From NCBI GenBank assembly GCA_020619395.1, contig GCA_020619395.1_4860.1: a stretch of DNA of 64,000 bases; one strand, 5' to 3'. The translations under genes and the position numbers were made by a program. A model generated the notes under the pieces. That model made no database searches. It was not told the DNA's origin and saw only the letters and a list, made by a program, of their open reading frames with translations. This DNA comes from a phage. Positions 6,603 to 54,543 of this stretch are shown one piece after another (position 1 is the first letter of the stretch; each line of letters begins with the position of its first letter).

Positions 6603-8198
6603 TTAGCCCATCACCGCTTCCAACGGAATGCCTTCTTCATCATCCTCATCTGCTTCAATAAGGAACTGGTTCTGCATACTGATTAGCTCGTTATGTAAAA
6701 CCATGCCGTGTTCTACGCGGTCCACATCAGTAGAAGACATAAAGCCGTTATCTGGACGGAATTGGAGTGCCAACTTCATCTCAGTTTCATCGACTGGCAA
6801 ACGTACCTGGAACTGGTCGCCATCGAAATCTCCATTTGCCATCTTGATCACACGGTCAGAGATACGCAGCGAACACTGGTTAACATCGGTAACAACTTCA
6901 TCGATGTACAGCGTTTGAATAGACAACTGTACCAGCGTTGGGTTACGTAACGGTATGACCATGATCCCAAGACCGCCTGGGGATTCACGAATCAGTTCTT
7001 TAAAGATTTCATCTACAAGCGGGTCATACTGCATTGCCGCTTTCGCAACGATACGTTCACACTGCCGTGACGAATAACCGCGTCGTAGCAGTTTGTTCTC
7101 GATGTGGGTCGACATCAACCCAACCATCCAACGCCATGGTGCTTTTAACTTCCAGGCATCATGTGGTTCTGAGATAGGTGAGATGGTTGCACGACCACCG
7201 AACGGGATATGGGTAGAACCCAATTTCGCACGATAGTCACCCGGTTTACCTTCCATAGACTCACGACGGAAGTCCATGTGGAAGTACGTTAACTGACGGT
7301 TCGCCTTCAAAGCGCGACTAATCAGAAAACGTGGTTCGATCGCTTTACGCCGCGTATAGAGCAACGCGATATTTTTCACCGCATCAATAGCACCCGTGAA
7401 CACTGGGTCTACCATGACACCACGACGACCTTCCTCAGTAACGATAAGTTTAGAGGAGATTAGCGGTAAGTGTCTTGGGAAGAATGCGTGACGTTGCGTT
7501 TCGAATAGCTCCTTCCATTGTAAACGTAAGCGTTCACCTTCAGCGGCGTTATGCCGATTAGGTGCGAAGATTTCCTTCCAGGCTTCTGGCGTGGTAAGGA
7601 TGTTAAAGATACTAACGTGGTTATCAACCAGATTGCGCAAGCCACGAACGAAACCGTGTTCTTCCAATACACGTTTCACAGCATGTGCGCGTTTACCGTC
7701 TGGTTCTTCTATACGGTAATACGGGTCAATCATCCACATCATCAAGTCATTACCGCGTTCGATAGTGACCTTGTTACGTTCAAACTTCTTCAACTTGCTA
7801 TTAAAGAAAGCATTGAACATTGCCCAGAATCGTGGGTTGACGAAGTTACCCATTTCATCAGGTGCACGTAACCAGACATCGGATTCAATTCGATGTTCAG
7901 TTACAACATAGCCACACGTCGGACACTTACAACCGAGATTGTAACGATGCGCGATCGGTGCCGGACAATCCAAACTACAAATCGGTGCAGAGTTCAGTTC
8001 TTCGTCAACGATTCTGTTCTGTACCATGCGATCGATAAGTTCAGCAACTTCGATCGCATCCCCGTTAACGGCGACATCGTTAATAATAGTGGGTGGTTTA
8101 ATACCTTTGGCTGCAGCTTCTATTTGCAAATCGGACAAATAGTTATCCTGACTAACCAACCGGCCGGATATTCCGTAGAATTTTGGTACCTTTCTCAC
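6603..8198 (-). CDS. multisubunit RNA polymerase beta-prime N-terminal-like subunit (probable non-virion RNAP)
   Basis: Cys4 cluster CSLDCPAPIAHRYNLGCKCPTCG near the N-terminus; RNPTLVQLSIQ...MANGDFDGDQFQVRLP matches the bacterial beta-prime RQPTLHRLGIQ...NADFDGDQMAVHVP catalytic segment; GTG start with GAGG upstream. Confidence 0.7.
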   Translation of the reverse strand: MRKVPKFYGISGRLVSQDNYLSDLQIEAAAKGIKPPTIINDVAVNGDAIEVAELIDRMVQNRIVDEELNSAPICSLDCPAPIAHRYNLGCKCPTCGYVVTEHRIESDVWLRAPDEMGNFVNPRFWAMFNAFFNSKLKKFERNKVTIERGNDLMMWMIDPYYRIEEPDGKRAHAVKRVLEEHGFVRGLRNLVDNHVSIFNILTTPEAWKEIFAPNRHNAAEGERLRLQWKELFETQRHAFFPRHLPLISSKLIVTEEGRRGVMVDPVFTGAIDAVKNIALLYTRRKAIEPRFLISRALKANRQLTYFHMDFRRESMEGKPGDYRAKLGSTHIPFGGRATISPISEPHDAWKLKAPWRWMVGLMSTHIENKLLRRGYSSRQCERIVAKAAMQYDPLVDEIFKELIRESPGGLGIMVIPLRNPTLVQLSIQTLYIDEVVTDVNQCSLRISDRVIKMANGDFDGDQFQVRLPVDETEMKLALQFRPDNGFMSSTDVDRVEHGMVLHNELISMQNQFLIEADEDDEEGIPLEAVMG

Positions 8199-8280: not shown

Positions 8281-10134
8281 TTACAGTTTGAAGTTGCTCA
8301 GAGACACGCCCAGACCGAAATCGGAACCGCTTGCAGACAGGCCGTTGCCAGACAGCGTGAAGTCTTCCCCACCGTTGTTGAAGAACAGAGAGGTCGCCAT
8401 CGTGTTGTAGGCATTTACACCAGTCATAGACCAGGTGCAGTTGTTACGGACGAAGTCCAGCAGGCATTTACCGAAGATCGGGTTGATAGCCATATCCAGA
8501 GATTCACCGGTAGCTTGCGGTGCTTTGGATGCGAACAGAGAAGCGGCCAGTTTCAGCATGTAGATACGCTGTTGACGCTCGTTCAGTTCACGGTGGCTGT
8601 AGGACTGTGCGTTCAGGTAGCTATAGACGTCGTTCGCGTTATCACCCAGTTTGGTAACAACGGAAATCAGGTCCATATCCTGGAAGCTACGTTTCTGTGC
8701 AGTACCGGTGTAAACACCGGAAACAGTCGGTACGGCTGCTTTCACGATGTGGCTGCAATGGATGGTACCATTGAAGGCATCGCCCAGCTGTGCTTTCAGT
8801 GCAGAAGCAAATACTGCAGTGAAGCTGGTCGCTGCAACAACTTCGCCGTTCTGATCACGCGGGGACATGGAATTCAGAATAGCGAGCAGCTGTTTCAGAG
8901 AGTTGTCGTAACCGACCGCAATTTCAGACAGCATAGTAGACAGACCACCCAGACCGTTACCGGCACGATGGCTAACTACCAGTGCTGCTTCACGCGGTGC
9001 GAACATATCCAGGCAACCTTCGATAGCTTCACGGCTACCGTCGATTTTGGATACATCAGGACGAGCGTCAGCACCCCAGGACAGGTATTCTGCCACACGG
9101 GAGAACTTGCGATCTTGTTTGTTCAGACGTTTCACAAACAGGTCACGCCAGCCACCGATTGCCGCGATTTCTGCAAATGCAGCCAGCAGCAGCAGTTGAC
9201 GTTCATACGGTGCCATTGCACCTTCAGTTTGAGAATCGACCAGACTTACTACGATTTCAGCCTGCAGCTGTTTCAGGTCGTAGACGCCGTTAACGACAGG
9301 CTTCTGACCGGTGAAACGCATGTTGACGAAACCAGTACCGGATACACGCGGATACACCTGTACCTGATTGGTGTCCAGCAGAGTCGGAGTGGCGTCGGAT
9401 ACGTTGCTTGGGCTGTGCTCAACGGTGATTGCGAAATCAGCACGTTGTGCGTGGCCGTTAGCATCCACAACCGCACCATCTTCCAGCGGCATTACTGCAG
9501 CCTGATAACGGTCATGCTTACGCAGGTTCAGCGTACCCAGGTAGCCTGCGATACGACCGAAGATGCCCATCATCATCTGACCCATCAGAGTACGTGCCCA
9601 CTCAGCATCCAGAACTTTACCCAGGTCTGGTACGGAGTTGATGATCATGAAGTTCGCATTGGTCAGACCATGCGCTTCCATGATGTTTTTCTGTACTACT
9701 GCCAGCACGTCTTTGTTGAACAGTTCAGTGATGGTGTAGTAGTCTTCCTGGCCGTTGTTGGTAGTTTCTTTCAGACGCAGAGACTGACCGCGTTCAAAGA
9801 AGATAATACCGTACAGCCAGTGGCCCTGCCATTGGCCTGCGACATACGCCGCGGAACCCATTTCGTTACCCACGCCGGCGATGGTGCCCCAGCGGAACGC
9901 GTTGAGGTATTCGTTGCTTTTCTTCAGCTCGTCCAGGAGGTTGACGAAGTGCATTGCATAGGTGCTGATGTTGCGGATGCCAAATGCGTTATCGAATTGG
10001 CTGACAGTAGAAGTACCCGGCACAGCAGTTTGCACTTTTACAGTCTCGTTGCCCAGACCGCCCAGTGGTGCGGTGTCTTGAGTCTGAGTGTTGTTCTGCT
10101 GAGCGTTGTTGTTAGAGTCAACGATTTTTACCAT
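8281..10134 (-). CDS. abundant early or structural protein (617 aa); candidate phage-nucleus shell protein (chimallin), alternatively a capsid protein
   Basis: stand-alone unit with its own promoter-like motif, conserved leader TTAAGGAATATTTAAA-ATG and terminator; adjacent to the beta-prime-like gene as in the phiKZ gp54/gp55 arrangement recalled from memory; no sequence motif confirmed. Confidence 0.35.
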   Translation of the reverse strand: MVKIVDSNNNAQQNNTQTQDTAPLGGLGNETVKVQTAVPGTSTVSQFDNAFGIRNISTYAMHFVNLLDELKKSNEYLNAFRWGTIAGVGNEMGSAAYVAGQWQGHWLYGIIFFERGQSLRLKETTNNGQEDYYTITELFNKDVLAVVQKNIMEAHGLTNANFMIINSVPDLGKVLDAEWARTLMGQMMMGIFGRIAGYLGTLNLRKHDRYQAAVMPLEDGAVVDANGHAQRADFAITVEHSPSNVSDATPTLLDTNQVQVYPRVSGTGFVNMRFTGQKPVVNGVYDLKQLQAEIVVSLVDSQTEGAMAPYERQLLLLAAFAEIAAIGGWRDLFVKRLNKQDRKFSRVAEYLSWGADARPDVSKIDGSREAIEGCLDMFAPREAALVVSHRAGNGLGGLSTMLSEIAVGYDNSLKQLLAILNSMSPRDQNGEVVAATSFTAVFASALKAQLGDAFNGTIHCSHIVKAAVPTVSGVYTGTAQKRSFQDMDLISVVTKLGDNANDVYSYLNAQSYSHRELNERQQRIYMLKLAASLFASKAPQATGESLDMAINPIFGKCLLDFVRNNCTWSMTGVNAYNTMATSLFFNNGGEDFTLSGNGLSASGSDFGLGVSLSNFKL

Positions 10135-10180
10135 TTTAAATATTCCTTAATAGTGATTGCAATCATAGTTCGGTTCGCAG

Positions 10181-10195
10181 AGATAATATCTGCCT
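10181..10195. promoter_or_regulatory. promoter-like motif AGATAATATCTGCCT, 47 bp upstream of the minus-strand start at 10134
   Basis: member of the recurrent AGATAATATC family in a divergent intergenic region. Confidence 0.4.
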
Positions 10196-10273
10196 GTAAT
10201 TTCATGGAATGCAAGTACGCCGTCGCTTACTTACAAGGCACATAGTCCAGACATTTCTCAGGAACTGTCACAT

Positions 10274-11458: not shown

Positions 11459-11500
11459 AAAACTACACACTTCGGTGTGTAGTTCTTTTTTTTATTTTTT
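11459..11500 (+). terminator. intrinsic terminator (ACTACACAC-TTCG-GTGTGTAGT hairpin plus T-run)
   Basis: perfect 9-bp stem with UUCG loop followed by a long T-tract. Confidence 0.65.
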
Positions 11501-11506
11501 GTCTGT

Positions 11507-11707
11507 CTAGTATTTTATCGTCTCCGTGAAGTCACTTGCGTATGGTTTACCCCACACAGTGATACTACGTTTCCGTTTGGCATCCAATGCCGTGATATGC
11601 ACCGTTTCGCCTGCCTGATGTAACTCAATATCCACGCAACCCCGTTCTTCGAGGTCGCGACGGATTGCGGTTATCATCTCTGTGGACTTCCCACTATTTC
11701 GATACAT
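11507..11707 (-). CDS. small hypothetical protein (66 aa)
   Basis: short ORF only. Confidence 0.3.
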   Translation of the reverse strand: MYRNSGKSTEMITAIRRDLEERGCVDIELHQAGETVHITALDAKRKRSITVWGKPYASDFTETIKY

Positions 11708-11763: not shown

Positions 11764-14043
11764 TTACTCCTCCGCTTCTTCCCCATCCTCTTCCTCTCCA
11801 TCACGTTCAGATTTCTTAACGTACTCGCCGCTACCTAATTCTTCCTTGACCGAGTCTACGGACTCGCCGTAGTAATCCGAAAGCAGACGAGTTCTGTTCT
11901 TGTCCATCATGAAGACACCCAGACATTCCAGGATGTGATAGTAAGGTTCTACTGTGGAGAATGCGCTTCGACGTGTGTCTGCAGCATCAATCAGCTCCGG
12001 AGGAATACCGAAGTTTTCCACCAAGAACTCTGGCAGTATCAGAGTACGATAGGTGCGATAGTTGTTCTCTTCGAACCACCGTGTTGCAGTGGTCTTAATC
12101 ATCGGGTCTTTAATGTTTTCCAGCCACTCTTTAACGGCTGTTTTGTTCTCCAGGTTTACCGGAAGTTTCACGGCGTCATAAGGCGGTTCGTCCAGGTAGC
12201 CGTACTTCGGTCCAAAGATGGCGTTGTACATGCGGTGATAGTGGTAGCTCTTTTCATCATCTTCAGAGTACGCACTACGGTCTTTGACGTTGGTTGTTTT
12301 CAGGTAGCCTGCTTTACCAGCGCGAATAGAATCCACCACAACGTGCTCAATTGCAGCAACCTTTTCCAGCAGAGGCAGAATCTTAATCTTGTCACCACGT
12401 GCCACGATCTCACAGAGTTCTTTAATCGTGCGTTTGAACTCTTTCATGACCACCGGAGGAATGTTCGACGTACGTAAAGACACGCCCTTAACTTCTAACT
12501 CAGGGTCAGACTTCAACTGCCCTTCCTGGCCAGTGATGATGGAGAAATAGTGTTTTGCTTTCGTGGTTAACGCAAAGGAGTCGAACTTAAATTCGTTCTT
12601 CATTGCGTACAAAAACAGACGCTCTTTCGCCACACCGATATTCGCCGACATACTCGCCATCAGATGACGTAAGTGCTGGGTTGCGATATAAATCATCGCA
12701 TCCGATACGCGCGTAGCTTCACGACCGTAATGTTGGCCGGTATACCACTGCGCCCACCACTGTGCAGTCATCATCGTGGAGTCGGTATCAGACACCACGC
12801 CGACACGACGAACCACGTCGGGCATCCTGGCAATGTTGATTGGCAGGTTTTTGGTGGTCAGGATATTACGAATCAAGCACGCGTACTTACCGATGGTTTT
12901 CTGCAGATACACAGCTGAGCGAATCAGCTCTTTGTATTTTTCCTGCTTATCCCACGGTTCCGCTTTGTTCGTGTTTTCGTCTTTGAGTTTAACGTCAGAG
13001 AACGACTTACCTAACGGCACGATATCAGTACGGAACTGCGAGATAATGATCTGCATGTCACCGTCGATAGAGCGCTCAGCGGCATCCCAATCAGTGATCT
13101 CGTCTTCCATCTCCTCGGCAATCAGCGCGCCGATAAATCCGCGCATGAATTCATCGTTGTATTTCGCCAGGTGGTAGAAGTCACCCATGTAGACAAACGC
13201 TGCACGTACCAGCGGGCTACAATTACCGACGTAGTGACGAATGAACTCCAGCCCTTCGTCGTTACGGAAGTAAAACTCTGCAGAGTACATAACCACTTCC
13301 ATAACCTCGTCCACTGTTGGGTAGTGGAGGTTATAGAGTTCCATACACTTCTTGAACTCCGCAAAGTTAGTCAGTGTACCGATAGAAAGTAGGTGGTCGA
13401 TAACACGGGACGGCGTGTCGTAGTGACGATTACCGCCCAGTAGACGTTCGTTGCCCGCGTTACCGAACGATGTAGCCGTACGGCAGGTTGACGTCAATAC
13501 AGAGTGCGAGGACTGGTTAAAGATTACCGTGTACGGTGATGAGAATGCACCCGACATTCCGTTGTTCAACGTCTTAACAGCGTTCTGTTCGTTCTTTTTG
13601 TTAATACGCAGAACTTCATTACCCGCAGCACCTGCTGCGTACATCTCTTTCTTAACGACCGCACGCTTACGCACGTTCTCTGCGGTAAATTCAGCAAGCT
13701 TAGAGCGCTTGACGTGCTCAGGCAGATAAAAGGTCAGCGACGGTGCAGAAATAATCTGCTTATCAATCACTGTACGGAACAGTTTATCTACCGTGGTGTA
13801 TTTTTCTTCGCGATCGCCGGTCTTTTGATTGCGCACCCACATCTTACACACGGGGAATTCGTGTACTAACTCACCACCAGGTTGGAACATTTCTTCGACC
13901 TGCTGTCGACAGAACTCCAAAGAATATTTCCCGTTGGTGACGGTATGAATGTAGAGCGCCAGTTGTTCGTAGTACGCATCGATAACGTCAATGTCGCGAT
14001 GATACTCGTCTTGACTAAGACGAAATGGTGAATTGTAGTCCAC
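11764..14043 (-). CDS. large hypothetical protein (759 aa), acidic C-terminus; function unassigned
   Basis: long ORF; has VVSDTDS and KTLNNGMSG segments but no coherent polymerase motif set. Confidence 0.6.
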   Translation of the reverse strand: MDYNSPFRLSQDEYHRDIDVIDAYYEQLALYIHTVTNGKYSLEFCRQQVEEMFQPGGELVHEFPVCKMWVRNQKTGDREEKYTTVDKLFRTVIDKQIISAPSLTFYLPEHVKRSKLAEFTAENVRKRAVVKKEMYAAGAAGNEVLRINKKNEQNAVKTLNNGMSGAFSSPYTVIFNQSSHSVLTSTCRTATSFGNAGNERLLGGNRHYDTPSRVIDHLLSIGTLTNFAEFKKCMELYNLHYPTVDEVMEVVMYSAEFYFRNDEGLEFIRHYVGNCSPLVRAAFVYMGDFYHLAKYNDEFMRGFIGALIAEEMEDEITDWDAAERSIDGDMQIIISQFRTDIVPLGKSFSDVKLKDENTNKAEPWDKQEKYKELIRSAVYLQKTIGKYACLIRNILTTKNLPINIARMPDVVRRVGVVSDTDSTMMTAQWWAQWYTGQHYGREATRVSDAMIYIATQHLRHLMASMSANIGVAKERLFLYAMKNEFKFDSFALTTKAKHYFSIITGQEGQLKSDPELEVKGVSLRTSNIPPVVMKEFKRTIKELCEIVARGDKIKILPLLEKVAAIEHVVVDSIRAGKAGYLKTTNVKDRSAYSEDDEKSYHYHRMYNAIFGPKYGYLDEPPYDAVKLPVNLENKTAVKEWLENIKDPMIKTTATRWFEENNYRTYRTLILPEFLVENFGIPPELIDAADTRRSAFSTVEPYYHILECLGVFMMDKNRTRLLSDYYGESVDSVKEELGSGEYVKKSERDGEEEDGEEAEE

Positions 14044-14092: not shown

Positions 14093-14128
14093 AAAAAAGA
14101 AAAAAAATAACCCACTCCGAAGAGTGGG
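14093..14128 (-). terminator. intrinsic terminator (CCCACTC-CGAA-GAGTGGG on plus, UUCG loop on minus, then T-run)
   Basis: hairpin 14111-14128 with adjacent A-tract, downstream of the gene ending at 14135. Confidence 0.55.
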
Positions 14129-14134
14129 CTTACT

Positions 14135-14545
14135 TTAACCGGCAATACTCTCAACGATTTCAAAATCGACGTCATTGAAACCATTGGCAGCCAGGGCACG
14201 TTTAAGGTCGTCAATCTCCTGTTTGTTATCCAGGGTGACGGTGAAGCGCACCTTCGTGTTTTCGATAATCTGAACATCACGAATCCAGGCATCGGCAGCG
14301 ACTTTTGGTTTGCCGTCAACACCTTTGAAAATCAGATACGTGTATTTGTTCACATTATCTTCTGGCTGGGAAACAATGGAAGAGTAGATATTCTTCTGCT
14401 CCGCCATCACATCCATATAACTTTTGGCCATCTCGTAGCCAACGCCGGTTGCCAGAATAATTACACGCGTCTCTTGCCCTTTCAAAGGGGTGTCGTAAAC
14501 AATGTTAACTTTTTGCCCAGCGACCAGTGTGCGTAAATCGAACAT
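14135..14545 (-). CDS. hypothetical protein (136 aa)
   Basis: ORF in a tightly packed minus-strand block. Confidence 0.55.
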   Translation of the reverse strand: MFDLRTLVAGQKVNIVYDTPLKGQETRVIILATGVGYEMAKSYMDVMAEQKNIYSSIVSQPEDNVNKYTYLIFKGVDGKPKVAADAWIRDVQIIENTKVRFTVTLDNKQEIDDLKRALAANGFNDVDFEIVESIAG

Positions 14546-52929: not shown

Positions 52930-54543
52930 TCATTTCAACAGCGCAGCAGTCGTTCTTTTAATCACGTTGTTAACCGGATTGATTTTGAAACTGCCGTCTG
53001 TTGCAAACCAGTAGTTTTTCGAACTGACCCACTTCCGATTTTCCTCGAGCGCTTCGGTTGACATCGGGCTGTTTGCTGAGCCGGTGTCACCATCGTAGTC
53101 ACCACCCAAGCCCCCTAATCGGGATGGATGTGGTGCCATGGATTCCACAAAGGTTTTCACGGTACGGTCAGGGAAGCTAATTGCTCCCTTCTCTTTTAAC
53201 GTGACCCAATCGTCTTCCAGTTCATGCAAATAGAGGGAAGAGGTGGTGGTCTCCAATCTTATGGTCGAGGAGTAAGTCGAACCGCGTCCCGTAACCGGAT
53301 AACGCGTGATGAACGAGAAGTAGTCATTCCAAATATCGTAACCTGACAAATAGAGGAGTTCCGCTAAGCTCAGTCCGCGGACAAGCTTACGGTCACGCCC
53401 CTCCGGCAGGTCTTCAATATCGTAAAAGATTTTGAAGCTGCGTTTGTCCTGGTAGATTAATGCCACGTAATGGTCCGGATCAATCATCAGCGGTTTATGT
53501 CGAAGCTCGCGCGCTTCCATTCTGTTGATGAGTGTTTCGATGCCATCGTCGGTAGTGAAAAGGTCATACACCCGCCCGGAGACTTCCAGGAACTCACGCT
53601 TGAGTGTTTTGGTGTTAACGCCGTATAAGTTGCCGTCCCCTGCCCGGATGTTACTGAGGTAACGTTCACGGATGTGGTATTGAGCCACAGGCAGTAATGC
53701 CTTCAGGGTTTGGTACAAACCGATACGGGTATCCGTTGGACGAATCGCATCTTCGCGACCCATGACCTTGGAACCGGTTGAGAATGAAGACAGTACGTTA
53801 CGCGTACCGTTCATTAACTTACGTGACGTCACTTTACGACGTGCAAAACCACCTTTACCATCTTGGATGTTAAAGAAGTACATCCAGATGTCATTAAAGG
53901 TTTGTTGGAGCTTCCAGCGAACCGGGTCAGTCAGTTCCGTTCGCGTACTGCGGTCGGGGATTGCACGTGCCAGAGAAATCAGACGGCGGTAGAGTCCGCC
54001 AATCTCTTCTTCTTGGTCGCGGCCATCCTGACGAATGACCAAATCACGTAATCCCGCAGGCAGAACCAGCACATAGCGGCTGAGACTGACCGGACGGAAC
54101 TTATTGAAGAAATCGACTGTCTCGTCGCGACGCATCGATTCGTTGCGTCCCGGTGTCAGTTGTTCGTAGTAGCGTAGGAAGAAGTTGAAGCCGGTGTCTG
54201 CACCTTTATCACTGGGCAGAGCCGGCTCGAAATCTTTTTCTTTCTCATTCCAGATAGCGAATCGCTTCCCGGAACAGATTTCTTCGTACAGCTGTTTCAG
54301 CTGGAACAATGCCAAACAAACGGTCGGCGAAATGATATCCAGTTTGATATCAATGTACGAGAACGTTGAGTCTCGTGCTTCGCTCCCTGTGAGGCCAAAA
54401 ATTTCGGTTGAATACAGTCCTTCAGGGTGAAAGTTTTTCGTCAGTCCCTGAAAGGTGTCTGTTGTTGTAACTGGTTTTAAATGCGACACCAGGGACTTGT
54501 TGACGTTTAACAAGTAAAAGTCAACCCAGTTTAGCTTTCTCAC
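52930..54543 (-). CDS. multisubunit RNA polymerase beta-prime N-terminal-like subunit, second copy (probable virion RNAP)
   Basis: GGDYDGDTGSANSPMSTEALEENR aligns with the beta-prime [24 protein letters not shown] metal-binding segment; N-terminal FHPEGLYSTEIFG resembles beta-prime FKPERDGLFCARIFGP; GTG start with AGGAG upstream. Confidence 0.6.
   Translation of the reverse strand: MRKLNWVDFYLLNVNKSLVSHLKPVTTTDTFQGLTKNFHPEGLYSTEIFGLTGSEARDSTFSYIDIKLDIISPTVCLALFQLKQLYEEICSGKRFAIWNEKEKDFEPALPSDKGADTGFNFFLRYYEQLTPGRNESMRRDETVDFFNKFRPVSLSRYVLVLPAGLRDLVIRQDGRDQEEEIGGLYRRLISLARAIPDRSTRTELTDPVRWKLQQTFNDIWMYFFNIQDGKGGFARRKVTSRKLMNGTRNVLSSFSTGSKVMGREDAIRPTDTRIGLYQTLKALLPVAQYHIRERYLSNIRAGDGNLYGVNTKTLKREFLEVSGRVYDLFTTDDGIETLINRMEARELRHKPLMIDPDHYVALIYQDKRSFKIFYDIEDLPEGRDRKLVRGLSLAELLYLSGYDIWNDYFSFITRYPVTGRGSTYSSTIRLETTTSSLYLHELEDDWVTLKEKGAISFPDRTVKTFVESMAPHPSRLGGLGGDYDGDTGSANSPMSTEALEENRKWVSSKNYWFATDGSFKINPVNNVIKRTTAALLK

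Follow-up and report, generated by a model that had tools for sequence, protein, structure and literature searches.

The split DNA polymerase discussed here has been known since 2012, when it was first recognized in phage OBP (Cornelissen et al., 2012, as cited by Ali et al., 2017; PMC5694885), and for Salmonella phage SPN3US a split-subunit DNA polymerase made up of gp18 and gp44 has been described (Ali et al., 2017; PMC5694885). According to Iyer et al. (2021; PMC7824862), phiKZ-like jumbo phages typically carry this family, a divergent clade of Pol B in which a long helical insert precedes the second palm strand and an SH3-fold gene is linked upstream. The family is curated in Pfam as PF20286. 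DNA polymerases belong to the chimallivirus core genes, and gp220, the DNA polymerase of Erwinia phage RAY, localizes to the phage nucleus (PMC10299810). For phiKZ, a 2.1 Å cryo-EM structure of gp82 (DNAP-N) with gp50 (DNAP-C) was reported in 2026 (Basu et al., preprint, bioRxiv, 1 October 2026; PMC13648687). The two chains form a stable, interdigitated 1:1 complex with activity, in which D562 of motif A lies on DNAP-N and D426 of motif C on DNAP-C, the helical palm insertion, within which the two chains are split, consists of DNAP-N 589-638 together with DNAP-C 1-98 and 221-419, and the thumb is the binding site of Rhc (gp155), a strong stimulator of synthesis (PMC13648687).

In this study, we analyzed a window of 64,000 nucleotides (the whole stretch of phage DNA examined, contig GCA_020619395.1_4860.1), which carries an open reading frame (ORF) of 759 codons plus stop on the minus strand (11764..14043). 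This ORF almost certainly encodes the DNAP-C subunit of a two-polypeptide family B replicative polymerase of the phiKZ-like nucleus-forming jumbo phages (chimalliviruses). Its DNA is ∼98% identical to Seoulvirus genomes, and the genome that carries it is that of an SPN3US-like Seoulvirus; judged by alignment, the gene is orthologous to SPN3US gp18 and phiKZ gp50. What is new at this locus is only an orthologue with a clade-specific acidic tail.

The 759-residue protein and its family

A large ORF containing the peptides KTLNNGMSG and VVSDTDS and ending in an acidic C-terminus had been described in a sequence-only reading of the window, and ORF calling and translation found all of these as described, with KTLNNGMSG spanning aa 157-165 and VVSDTDS aa 416-422. 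The ORF starts at GTG 14043, which is preceded at a distance of 6 nt by an AAGGGG Shine-Dalgarno-like element; a TAA lies in frame 7 codons upstream, with no alternative start codon in between. Database searches returned 346 homologs at E≤1e-5, 102 of which, with identity down to 35%, were used in the conservation alignment. In this alignment K157, N160, N161, S164, G165, D419, T420, D421, S422 and T423 are invariant. Considering these residues and the 346 homologs, we judged that the peptides and the tail are not due to chance. The residues F7, Y14 and R16 are also invariant and all 102 aligned homologs begin within a few residues of the GTG-encoded start; thus, the GTG start is right.

It should be noted that the corresponding gene of Salmonella phage SPLA5c (WNT48520.1, L001 20154-22280) was annotated from the internal Met52 as a protein of 708 aa, equivalent to positions 11764-13890 of the window. 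On the alignment, this annotation is too short: it leaves out the first 51 residues, among them the invariant F7, Y14 and R16, and so truncates the domain by which the two subunits are locked to each other. The present analysis therefore fixes the annotation of this family, in which the gene is labeled 'hypothetical protein' in most GenBank records, SPN3US gp18 included, and at least one start is placed 51 codons too late.

The protein matched PF20286 (divDNApol, 'Divergent Family B DNA polymerase') with an E-value of 4e-284 and 944.6 bits (cut-off 25.7), aa 11-725 being aligned to profile positions 3-705 of 705. It also matched PHROG 2927 ('DNA polymerase'), and phiKZ gp50 (PHIKZ050) could be aligned at 34% identity (aa 5-725 on 8-731, E 1e-148). 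Homologs were found in 301 phage records, mainly of jumbo phages, whose main hosts are Pseudomonas, Erwinia, Salmonella, Vibrio, Serratia and Aeromonas. The classical family B profile PF00136 scored 17.9 bits (cut-off 23), its match being confined to aa 94-189, and no exonuclease domain was detected in the 759-aa chain by Pfam search. A classical single-chain family B polymerase (PF00136 plus PF03104) is ruled out, as PF00136 stays below threshold and both the exonuclease and motif A are absent.

A PDB search with the single 759-aa sequence gave chance matches only, whereas the profile search of the family against the PDB gave polymerase matches that were weak yet consistent. The family profile matched Pol zeta in the fingers (E 0.003), and hhalign of the family against the single RB69 sequence recovered the KxY region alone (probability 16.8%). 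The protein has the palm, fingers and thumb fold of family B. The remaining fold hits were non-specific helical bundles on the helical insert, none of them an RNA polymerase.

These results bear on the suggestion, made in the sequence-only reading, that the ORF might be a diverged piece of the phage multisubunit RNA polymerase or a new nucleic-acid enzyme. The window does hold split RNA polymerase genes (6603-8198 and 52930-54543 match PHROGs annotated 'RNA polymerase beta subunit'), and the presence of several such genes indicates that fragmented polymerases are typical of this genome. However, neither sequence nor fold comparison gave any match of the 759-aa protein to RNA polymerase beta/beta' domains, and the PF20286 match and the homology to phiKZ gp50 refute the suggestion, to which we assign a negligible probability.

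Two odd database hits suggested a second polymerase paralogue, and these proved to be scrambled-sequence artefacts. In P0086 and P0115, two polymerase entries of SPFM phages, the true sequence is present in blocks of ∼20 residues in reversed order; a block corresponds to 60 nt, or one FASTA line, which indicates an artefact of deposit or annotation. Six gp44-family entries of other SPFM phages combine high HMMER scores with a BLASTP coverage of 3-11%, the same low-coverage pattern. Altogether, the odd entries P0086, P0115, P0159, P0160, P0162, P0170, P0172 and P0173 belong to Salmonella phages SPFM1, 5/15, 6, 7, 9, 10, 12 and 20.

Domain organization and motif spacing

All domains described below are encoded on the minus strand. 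The chain begins with segment 1 of the palm insertion, a domain specific to this family (aa 1-94; 13762..14043), which contains F7, Y14 and R16 and aligns to phiKZ DNAP-C 1-98. The fingers (aa 115-170; 13534..13701), to which the Pol zeta profile match and the sub-threshold PF00136 match correspond, form two long helices in the structure model (115-139 and 143-168). R127 and K131, both invariant, lie on the first of these, and motif B (KTLNNGMSG; 13549..13575), which aligns to KLLANVTYG of Pol zeta, lies on the second. Palm-insertion segment 2 (aa 203-414; 12802..13437) aligns to phiKZ DNAP-C 221-419, and both segments are helical in the model save for a beta-hairpin at 65-84 in segment 1. Motif C (VVSDTDST; 12775..12798) forms a beta-hairpin with modeled strands at 416-419 and 422-425, and D419-T423 are invariant. 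D421 aligns with phiKZ DNAP-C D426, and by this correspondence it is the equivalent catalytic aspartate of motif C. Further along the palm, K497-H-Y499 (12547..12555), in which K497 and Y499 are invariant, aligns to K706-R-Y708 of RB69 gp43, that is, to the KxY motif with which family B polymerases contact the primer terminus. The thumb occupies aa ∼546-725 (11869..12408).

The sequence-only reading had objected that the spacing of the polymerase-like peptides does not fit family B. The anomaly is real: K157 and D419 are 262 residues apart, compared with 61 between K560 and D621 of RB69 gp43. On the other hand, the conclusion drawn from it did not hold, as the protein is still family B by its full-length PF20286 match, and the unusual spacing is explained by palm-insertion segment 2, which places 212 residues between the two motifs. 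Taken as a whole, the sequence-only reading is supported in part.

Within this helical segment, the stretch A-F-V-Y-x-G-D288-(F/L)-(Y/F)-H-L-A-K-(Y/F)-N (aa 282-296; 13156-13200, minus strand) is nearly unchanged in the 102 homologs, D288 being invariant. The D288 motif may be part of the two-subunit interface. Another reading is that the palm insertion (aa 1-94 and 203-414, with D288) bears a second activity besides elongation, for example priming. Iyer et al. (2021) considered a 'primpol' possible in view of group 1 jumbo phages lacking both DnaG-type and AEP primases, the authors of the cryo-EM study found no structural relatives of the palm insertion (PMC13648687), and the insertion contains the invariant motif GD288(F/L)YHLAKYN. 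If the palm insertion primes, the lack of a recognizable primase in these phages would be explained; nevertheless, we regard this reading as improbable.

Motif A and the partner subunit

The motif A aspartate is required by every family B polymerase. Across the 102 homologs, no invariant acidic residue was found before the fingers of the 759-aa chain. Two candidate positions within the chain were considered. D19/Y24, which has the spacing of 5 seen in DxxSLYPS, was rejected because D19 is replaced by Asn in 33 of the 102 sequences and D17 varies, and also because these residues form part of the palm insertion. The second candidate, a relocated motif at D288 (AAFVYMGD), the one further invariant Asp, was likewise rejected: the structure model shows helix there, and gp44 carries the true motif A.

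The translation of SPN3US gp44 contains Exo I (VYDVETNE), Exo II (WNHQFD) and Exo III (YAVYNMMD), followed by motif A (ADADLTQAYPS) near the C-terminus, and D152, E154, D266, Y395, D399, D506, D508, Y513 and P514 are invariant in the gp44 family (n=65). The gp44 profile aligned to RB69 gp43 with a probability of 97.7% (E 2e-12), placing D508 on D411 and Y513 on Y416; D508 also aligns with phiKZ DNAP-N D562. Moreover, the full-length polymerase PHROG 262 matched gp44 with its N-terminal part and the 759-aa ORF with its C-terminal part. One polymerase PHROG divided across both chains, together with motif A on gp44, indicates an enzyme that is cut after motif A. Neither chain is expected to be active alone, as the motifs lie on two polypeptides. 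It should be noted that Pfam detected no family in SPN3US gp44, which was assigned instead by PHROGs and hhalign, and a precomputed PF03104 hit was present for only 1 of 94 gp44 homologs, despite clear Exo I-III and motif A.

The gene for SPN3US gp44 (L003 31225-33009, minus strand) lies outside the window, ∼27.4 kb past its left edge by SPN3US coordinates. Consistent with this location, tblastn of the window with SPN3US gp44, phiKZ gp82 and phiKZ Rhc revealed no partner gene (best E 0.085), and neither Pfam (30 ORFs) nor PHROGs (18 ORFs) identified an exonuclease or N-terminal partner there. A full-length homolog of Rhc is found in Seoulvirus SPFM11, whose 504-aa protein aligns with phiKZ gp155 over aa 3-476 (E 7e-38). 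Given the near-identical relatives, the studied phage should possess both gp44 and Rhc.

From homology, motifs and fold, and from the finding that motif A is missing from DNAP-C but occurs in the partner family, we propose the following organization for the split polymerase. In the fingers of DNAP-C, R127 and K131 together with motif B (K157 and N161) would bind the incoming dNTP, and in the second part of the palm motif C (D419 and D421) would bind the catalytic metals, whereas motif A and the 3'-5' exonuclease would be supplied by gp44, the homolog of phiKZ gp82 (DNAP-N). KxY (K497 and Y499) would hold the primer end and the thumb would grip the duplex product. The break between the polypeptides would fall inside the large helical palm-insertion domain, so that the insertion would be built from the C-terminus of DNAP-N and aa 1-94 and 203-414 of DNAP-C, the two chains interlocking around one active site. 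As in phiKZ, the thumb is probably also where Rhc, which combines RNase H and clamp-like domains, docks and raises the output of DNA. The studied phage is likely to have a complex assembled and active like that of phiKZ; for the two-chain complex, its enzymatic activity and its contact with Rhc alike, we extrapolate from phiKZ at 26-37% identity.

It might instead be supposed that the 759-aa protein is a self-sufficient DNA polymerase without exonuclease, with a separate exonuclease as a loose accessory. Such an arrangement was indicated by Iyer et al. (2021), who described a divergent Pol B without fused exonuclease, the latter being 'encoded elsewhere' and, as a protein of its own, possibly joining the polymerase. 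However, the 759-aa chain lacks the conserved motif A aspartate, whereas the gp44/gp82 family has an invariant motif A that lines up with D411/Y416 of RB69. In addition, the phiKZ chains interdigitate 1:1, and the D562A substitution that abolishes polymerase activity is in DNAP-N (PMC13648687). This reading is therefore very improbable. The two-polypeptide organization also corrects the earlier picture of the window, in which no replicative DNA polymerase had been recognized: the phage encodes its own replicative polymerase, and half of it (DNAP-C, aa 1-759) is present here. What such phages would exemplify is a family B active site split over two polypeptides encoded 27 kb apart and helped by a clamp-derived protein.

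Acidic tail, neighboring genes and related systems

The last 34 residues of the protein (aa 726-759; 11767..11868, minus strand) form an acidic tail that is predicted to be disordered, contains 15 D/E vs 4 K/R and ends in DGEEEDGEEAEE. In the structure model, pLDDT falls below 50 at 737-739 and 745-759. Its conserved Y-V-x-K-x-E-R-D stretch precedes a poly-Asp/Glu run; the tail is found in relatives of at least ∼70% identity, is shorter in the next clade and occurs sporadically elsewhere. In phiKZ, the C-terminus of Rhc adjoins that of DNAP-C, and the Rhc clamp has a positively charged DNA-binding face. We tentatively suggest, as a possibility on the unlikely side, that the tail serves as a functional tether or DNA mimic docking on a basic replisome partner, such as the clamp face of Rhc; a role of this kind, selected repeatedly, would agree with the sporadic recurrence of acidic tails in unrelated branches. 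If the tail docks on Rhc, it might stabilize or regulate a contact that phiKZ makes only transiently.

Directly upstream of the polymerase gene lies a gene for a 136-aa SH3DP protein (14135..14545, minus strand; PF20287, 'SH3 fold domain associated with phage DNA polymerases', E 3.2e-35), in the same order as in SPN3US (gp17-gp18) and phiKZ (gp49-gp50). The assignment relies on the Pfam profile, and BLASTP revealed no significant pairwise similarity between this protein and phiKZ gp49. The SH3DP protein may be an accessory factor; neither gp49 nor SH3 is mentioned in the cryo-EM paper (PMC13648687). Between the SH3DP and polymerase genes we observed an intrinsic-terminator-like hairpin (14109..14130, minus strand) with a 9 bp stem, a TTCG loop and a T8 tail.

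Downstream, an ORF of 66 codons (11507-11707, minus strand) begins at a distance of 57 nt from the polymerase stop and is preceded by the RBS-like stretch GGGGTGGAAGGG. It matches phrog_8262 of unknown function (E 1e-29), and the SPN3US annotation at this place is gp19, with 93 aa. A second hairpin (11461..11484, unstranded) has a 10 bp stem and a TTCG loop. With A-runs and T-runs on either side and a location between convergent genes, it is likely a two-way terminator between the polymerase/66-codon unit and the convergent plus-strand gene. The two GC-rich hairpins with their T-runs (14109-14130 and 11461-11484) thus bracket the unit formed by the polymerase gene and the 66-codon ORF.

Further along the window, a 617-aa ORF (8281-10134, minus strand) matches phrog_8316 of unknown function and occupies the position of the chimallin gene gp54 in phiKZ. 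No significant pairwise similarity to phiKZ gp54 was detected by BLASTP (E 0.67), and SPN3US chimallin, labeled gp244, was reported to be 10% identical to 201phi2-1 chimallin. Antisense to this ORF runs a stop-free frame of 576 codons (8515-10245, plus strand), which is probably spurious.

The closest counterpart of the protein is SPN3US gp18 (AEP83851.1, SPN3US_0018), which is identical at 757 of 759 positions, has the same length and GTG start, and differs by two conservative substitutions only. phiKZ gp50 is collinear at 34% identity and shares motif B, motif C, KxY and the two-segment palm insertion; the SH3DP neighbor upstream and a motif-A-bearing partner are also common to both phage types. 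In contrast with our protein, gp50 ends at the SDFY motif and lacks the 34-residue acidic tail, and its fingers tip is ∼14 residues longer. In the partner subunit, the 'little finger' insertion of phiKZ gp82, which is specific to Pseudomonas phages, is missing from SPN3US gp44.

Compared with RB69/T4 gp43, a single chain of 903 residues, the enzyme described here is encoded by two genes ∼27 kb apart, with the cut after motif A, and contains a palm insertion of ∼300 residues. In motif B the tyrosine of gp43 is replaced (NSxYG to NNxxSG), and the acidic tail has nothing like the PIP-like clamp-binding tail found at the C-terminus of gp43. Finally, some archaea, for example Methanothermobacter with its two-subunit PolB, also have a family B polymerase made of two polypeptides that must associate for activity. 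The archaeal split is independent, falls at another position and involves no palm insertion; the resemblance implies no homology outside the family B core.
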